In this document: in pieces, positions 1 through 773 of the stretch
Position numbering within the stretch: the first letter of the stretch is position 1
Layout of the letters: the number at the start of each line of letters is the position of its first letter
Assembly (NCBI RefSeq): GCF_003334385.1
Contig: NZ_QOWN01000145.1
Source: Escherichia coli
GTDB taxonomy: Bacteria > Pseudomonadota > Gammaproteobacteria > Enterobacterales > Enterobacteriaceae
DNA length: 773 bases
Direction: 5' to 3' (one strand)
The notes under the pieces: generated by a model
What the model saw: only the letters and a program-made list of their open reading frames with translations
Database searches by the model: none
What the model was told of the DNA's origin: nothing
Made by a program: the position numbers and the translations under genes

Positions 1-773
1 AACATGGCCTGGTGTCTGTGGGATATGCTGACCCATCCACGCTACGGCATGGGGAAACGTCTTGGTGCGGCGGATGTGGACAAATGGGCGCTGTATGTCA
101 TCGGCCAGTACTGCGACCAGTCAGTACCGGACGGCTTTGGCGGCACGGAGCCGCGCATCACCTGTAATGCGTACCTGACCACACAACGTAAGGCGTGGGA
201 TGTGCTCAGTGATTTCTGCTCGGCGATGCGCTGTATGCCGGTATGGAACGGGCAGACGCTGACGTTCGTGCAGGACCGACCGTCGGATAAGGCGTGGACC
301 TATAACCGCAGTAATGTGGTGATGCCGGATGATGGCGCGCCGTTCCGCTACAGCTTCAGCGCCCTGAAAGACCGCCATAATGCCGTTGAGGTGAACTGGA
401 TTGACCCGAACAACGGCTGGGAGACGGCGACAGAGCTTGTTGAAGATACGCAGGCCATTGCCCGTTACGGTCGTAATGTTACGAAGATGGATGCCTTTGG
501 CTGTACCAGCCGGGGGCAGGCACACCGCGCCGGGCTGTGGCTGATTAAAACGGAGCTGCTGGAGACGCAGACCGTGGATTTCAGCGTCGGCGCAGAAGGG
601 CTTCGCCATGTACCGGGCGATGTTATTGAAATCTGCGATGATGACTATGCCGGTATCAGCACCGGTGGTCGTGTGCTGGCGGTGAACAGCCAGACCCGGA
701 CGCTGACGCTCGACCGTGAAATCACGCTGCCATCCTCCGGTACCACGCTGATAAGCCTGGTTGACGGAAGTGG
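1..773 (+). CDS. J: Internal fragment (5' and 3' partial) of phage tail tip / host-specificity protein J (lambda gpJ-like central tail fibre protein); central conserved region, not the C-terminal receptor-binding region
   Basis: Seen in sequence: frame +1 from nt 1 is open for 257 consecutive codons to the window edge, with the last 2 nt being a partial codon. Codon usage is enterobacterial/lambda-like (ctg, ccg, gcg, cgc and cgt preferred). From recall: the translation matches the gpJ segment that starts ...NMAWCLWDMLTHPRYGMGKRLGAADVDKWALYVIGQYCDQSVPDGFGGTEPRITCNAYL... and continues ...HVPGDVIEICDDDYAGISTGGRVLAVNSQTRTLTLDREITLPSS.... The ATG at nt 2-4 is an internal Met codon, not the start; gpJ begins several hundred codons upstream. 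This CDS is absent from the ORF track, presumably because the track requires a start and stop within the window. Confidence 0.93.

Follow-up and report, generated by a model that had tools for sequence, protein, structure and literature searches.

The 773-base stretch of DNA analysed here, called the window throughout, raised the question to which gene its uninterrupted reading frame belongs, and whether that gene resides in phage lambda itself or in a natural prophage of Escherichia coli.

Reading frame and selection

Six-frame translation of the window yielded a frame +1 that was free of stops across 257 codons, and each of the other five frames contained 1 to 18 stops. When the window was shuffled 20,000 times by single nucleotides, a fully open frame in any register appeared in just 28 cases. 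The GC content of frame +1 was 0.60, 0.48 and 0.70 at codon positions 1, 2 and 3, a coding-like pattern. Because the frame is stop-free, open frames are rare in the shuffles and GC varies with codon position in this manner, we regard the open frame as real.

The window was aligned with five homologues, namely those of lambda, phage Kati, Gifsy-1, an Stx1a phage and an Stx2c phage, at DNA identities of 77-99%. All five were colinear with the window over the 773 bases, with zero indels and zero stops in frame +1. Substitutions fell mainly on codon position 3; in Gifsy-1 there were 28, 21 and 121 at positions 1, 2 and 3, respectively. Among the codons of frame +1 that had changed, 92 were synonymous and 40 non-synonymous in the comparison with Gifsy-1, and 9 and 2 in that with lambda. 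Judged by these alignments, frame +1 is under purifying selection.

Identity of the encoded protein

The frame was assigned as follows, with the start and stop codons of J both lying outside the window:

1 to 773, plus strand: internal fragment of gene J (tail tip attachment or host specificity protein), frame +1, gpJ residues 271-527

Over its entire length the translation aligned with residues 271-527 of lambda gpJ (PDB 8iyk_J and 9e7m_Ja; E about 1e-178) and was identical in 255 of 257 positions, the two substitutions relative to lambda being T368A and A519T. The DNA was 98.6% identical to positions 16315-17087 of the lambda genome (NC_001416), i.e. inside the J CDS at 15505-18903. The family models that had been proposed as a check agreed with this assignment. 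NCBIfam NF049904 lambda_TipJ matched with 601 bits and E 3.5e-180, amino acids 1-257 of the window lying on model positions 271-527 of 1163; the curated cut-off of 1950 bits applies to the whole protein and is out of reach for a fragment of 257 amino acids. PHROG 31, 'central tail fiber J', matched with E 5.9e-160, and Pfam PF13550 Phage-tail_3 with E 3e-44 over amino acids 60-228 of the window, covering model positions 1-162 of 164.

We are therefore almost certain that the window is an in-frame piece from the interior of gene J, and that this gene belongs to a lambda-type (lambdoid) siphophage or prophage of E. coli. All checks suggested along with the original prediction came out positive, and none of the results spoke against the assignment. 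The original prediction, made from the letters of the sequence, had placed the window wholly within a gene for a lambda-type tail tip protein J; this was borne out, as it lies in-frame within the J CDS both of lambda and of the E. coli prophage described below. The prediction had further spoken of the central part of gpJ. The segment is indeed one of gpJ, but it occupies 24-47% of the length of a protein of about 1,130 residues, hence part of the N-terminal half and not the physical centre.

Position in the tail tip

Two features of the window locate it within the domain layout of the protein:

178 to 684, plus strand: stretch matching Pfam PF13550 Phage-tail_3 (E 3e-44), part of the baseplate-hub domain core, gpJ residues 330-498

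637 to 773, plus strand: start of the beta-sandwich ('OB') domain inserted in HDIV, gpJ residues 483-527, boundaries from PMC10721106

The OB boundaries were mapped to the window via the residue numbering of the gpJ structure alignment. In the published layout HDII of gpJ carries insertion domains, including an FNIII-like domain at residues 72-215 with a flanking strand up to residue 223 (PMC10721106, PMC11101478). HDII is followed by HDIII and then by HDIV with the extra beta-sandwich or OB domain at residues 483-569 (PMC10721106). Beyond HDIV the chain continues through a linker and a pair of FNIII domains to a helical shaft, a beta-prism fibre and, at the C-terminus, the receptor-binding domain (PMC10721106, PMC11101478). 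It follows from this layout that residues 271-527 fall in the core formed by the hub domains and in the first half of the OB domain, the division of residues 271-482 among HDII, HDIII and HDIV being approximate. Thus the segment belongs neither to the fibre shaft nor to the receptor-binding end, and it is not the host-range determinant.

We infer the role of the window's product in opening of the tail tip from published lambda structures, to which it is 99% identical. The tip cone of lambda consists of three gpJ and three gpL below the gpM ring, and is plugged by gpI together with the C-terminus of the tape measure gpH (PMC10721106, PMC11101478). Once the C-terminal receptor-binding domain of gpJ meets the outer-membrane receptor (LamB in the case of lambda), a signal passes up the fibre. 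The FNIII domains come apart, and the hub domains (HDII-HDIII) swing outward as rigid bodies. The gpI plug is released and the channel widens to about 3 nm, which lets the DNA out (PMC10721106, PMC11101478). The product of the window would have the corresponding part in this process.

An exact match in an E. coli prophage

A search of 5,426 complete E. coli genomes returned one chromosome that matched the window at 100% over all 773 bases, that of strain SCU-104 (NZ_CP053284.1, 1286440-1287212). Identities of at least 99% were found in 34 records, SCU-104 included. The gpJ of SCU-104 that holds the exact match is WP_174147651.1, encoded at 1285630-1289043 by a CDS that is intact at 1,137 amino acids. 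In the excerpt of this chromosome that was inspected for gene content (NZ_CP053284.1, 1266440-1296440) the match lies at 20001-20773 and the J CDS at 19191-22604.

Segments resembling the J hub were present in 4,534 of the 5,426 genomes (84%), the number of places in one genome having a median of three and a maximum of 14, and 53 such places were situated on plasmids. The best match was 95-99% identical to the window in 4,140 E. coli records.

Genomic context and state of the prophage

The context of the tail module was read from the single record matching at 100%, SCU-104, and from lambda, and is carried over to the window from these two. The gene order in lambda is H-M-L-K-I-J-lom-stf-tfa. 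In SCU-104 terminase, portal, protease, decoration protein and capsid genes are followed by tail genes, the tape measure, M, L, a K-like C40 peptidase, I and J; behind J come a protein of the Ail/Lom family, a side tail fibre and a fibre assembly protein. The tape measure gene and M, L, I and the C40 peptidase gene K hence lie upstream of J in the exact match as well as in lambda, and the order anticipated from lambda, with M, L, K and I upstream and lom, stf and tfa downstream, was seen in both.

Upstream in SCU-104 are essD, rrrD, rzpD and nohD, and beyond the fibre assembly gene chromosomal genes including ompT, envY and nfrA are reached. We take the essD/rrrD/rzpD/nohD lysis cassette, in combination with ompT and envY as neighbours, to be the DLP12 locus of E. 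coli K-12. Because of this cassette and these neighbours the SCU-104 prophage looks like a relative of DLP12, the cryptic prophage of K-12, that is fuller and nearly complete. The prophage also carries an iss (bor-like) gene and a gene for an OmpC-type porin.

The M homologue of SCU-104, located upstream of J at 16785-17114 of the excerpt, carries a pseudogene annotation, and its translation is interrupted by a stop at codon 79 (...TPPYE*RQIKV...). Because of this stop tail assembly may fail there, and the prophage possibly forms no functional tails despite its intact J. Thus a cryptic prophage in decay, with a J or a whole tail module that no longer functions, has to be considered as the origin of the window, which would then be phage DNA outside any working tail gene. 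The defective M belongs to the only complete E. coli genome that matches at 100%, many lambdoid prophages in E. coli genomes are defective, and J-like segments are as widespread as stated above. On the other hand, the frame is intact within the window, and the differences from lambda, nine synonymous and two conservative ones, give no sign of decay. Furthermore, the J CDS of SCU-104 is full-length and the other head and tail genes of that prophage are annotated as intact. We consider an origin from a decayed prophage unlikely. The preferred reading remains that of an in-frame fragment of a lambdoid J.

A mosaic J in the exact-match prophage

The part of J that lies outside the window was analysed in SCU-104, where J was compared in bins of 100 columns with the J of lambda and that of an Stx2c-converting phage. 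Up to about nt 1,800 SCU-104 J was 97-100% identical to lambda, with 90% in a single bin, whereas its identity to the Stx2c phage was just 51-93%. Between about nt 1,800 and 2,800 the three genes resembled one another. From about nt 2,900, corresponding to residue 965 or so, identity to lambda was 45-74%, and that to the Stx2c phage was mostly 98-100%, with approximately 87-91% near the 3' end. For the C-terminal 170 or so residues the DNA identity to lambda was just about 45-50%. In addition, the last 189 residues of SCU-104 J were 99.5% identical in amino acids to many Stx2c phages and to phage phi458.

SCU-104 J is a lambda-like hub joined to a receptor-binding end of the Stx2c-phage type, a case of classical lambdoid mosaicism. 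The window is situated wholly inside the lambda-like block. Because the 3' part of SCU-104 J is just 45-74% identical to lambda, the receptor specificity of the mosaic protein is probably other than that for LamB, the receptor of lambda.

Lambda DNA rejected as a source

In the phage collection the top hits of the window were lambda and its derivatives, about two dozen of the latter also being 98.6% identical to it. This could point to genuine lambda or a laboratory derivative, i.e. vector DNA or contamination, as the source in place of a natural prophage. However, the lambda-type records listed all differ from the window equally, at 98.6% identity and 11 mismatches, of which nine are synonymous third-position changes and two are non-synonymous. 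Because of these 11 mismatches the window is not lambda itself. Moreover, identity is 100% for a prophage in an E. coli chromosome and 99% or above for 33 further chromosomes. We thus consider a lambda or vector origin very improbable; lambda as the source is effectively refuted by 11 fixed differences from every lambda-type record listed. The prediction had left open phage lambda or a closely related lambdoid prophage. The window is the allele of a lambdoid prophage, and the part of the claim that named lambda did not hold.

Within the same collection MW057783.1, entered as 'Campylobacter phage CJLB-4' (48,361 bp, host Campylobacter jejuni), matched the window at 16235-17007 with 98.6% identity, exactly as lambda does, and has J at a lambda-like coordinate. 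The record looks like lambda DNA under the name of a Campylobacter phage, possibly by contamination or mislabelling.

Antisense frame, RNA and regulatory signals

One further feature was present on the opposite strand:

121 to 609, minus strand: antisense ORF of 162 amino acids from the list of open reading frames, in exact antisense register with the codons of J and not regarded as a gene

The sense strand holds a single TTA, CTA or TCA codon, and the antisense frame is open because these three codons are nearly missing. In the antisense frame the changed codons were 7 synonymous versus 125 non-synonymous ones with Gifsy-1, and 2 versus 32 with phage Kati. The ORF thus shows no sign of selection. 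On account of this substitution pattern and of codon usage it was rejected as a gene, the open frame being an artefact of the codons that J uses.

Neither strand of the window matched an Rfam family at E<=1, and the window contained no promoter-like sites and no inverted repeats. One terminator-like hairpin was detected at 603-620, compared to a mean of 0.5 in shuffles, and was taken as chance. The same applies to two weak direct repeats of two copies each, one of 25 nt at 76% and one of 14 nt at 93%.

It is most improbable that the T368A/A519T allele of the window, which in the exact-match prophage is joined to a receptor-binding end of the Stx2c-phage type, makes a functionally distinct hub/RBD combination with an altered tail-opening trigger, or that the antisense ORF in register with J is expressed; none of the results supported either. 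Very remote, too, is a second function embedded in the segment, be it an antisense gene, a structured RNA or a regulatory site, for which one might cite the single stop of frame -3 across the window and the hairpin, but the 162-aa ORF runs in the register of J with codon changes that are almost all non-synonymous, and the lambda annotation has no feature at the equivalent of the ORF or of the hairpin segment.

Comparison with known systems

The structure of gpJ and its opening mechanism are already solved; the window is a textbook gene fragment that is already known, and it adds nothing to them. Its value is mainly one of annotation: it flags the tail module of a lambdoid prophage in a genome of the E. 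coli type. Conservation of the J hub to which it belongs is very wide among the prophages of E. coli, mostly with several copies and 95-99% identity. Its context illustrates the familiar point that recombination swaps the receptor-binding end of J.

Among known proteins, the gpJ of the lambdoid prophage in SCU-104 is without any difference from the window over the 773 bases. Lambda gpJ (NP_040600; PDB 8IYK, 8XCG and 9E7M) shares with it 255 of 257 amino acids and 98.6% of the DNA, and has the same neighbouring genes as the exact match. The J proteins of Stx-converting lambdoid phages and of Salmonella Gifsy-1 belong to the same family, with 77-78% DNA and 77-84% protein identity to the segment, but represent a clearly separate hub allele.

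More distant is the baseplate hub protein pb3 of T5, which is equivalent to gpL plus gpI plus the N-terminal part of gpJ (PMC10721106). All four hub domains are united in one protein in T5, whereas HDI resides in gpL in lambda (PMC10721106). The tail fibre of the F2-pyocin (PDB 25vf) matched with E 8e-67 over the equivalent residues 278-531. T5 pb3, the F2-pyocin fibre and other siphophage hub proteins have a common hub-domain architecture and are distant homologues of gpJ.
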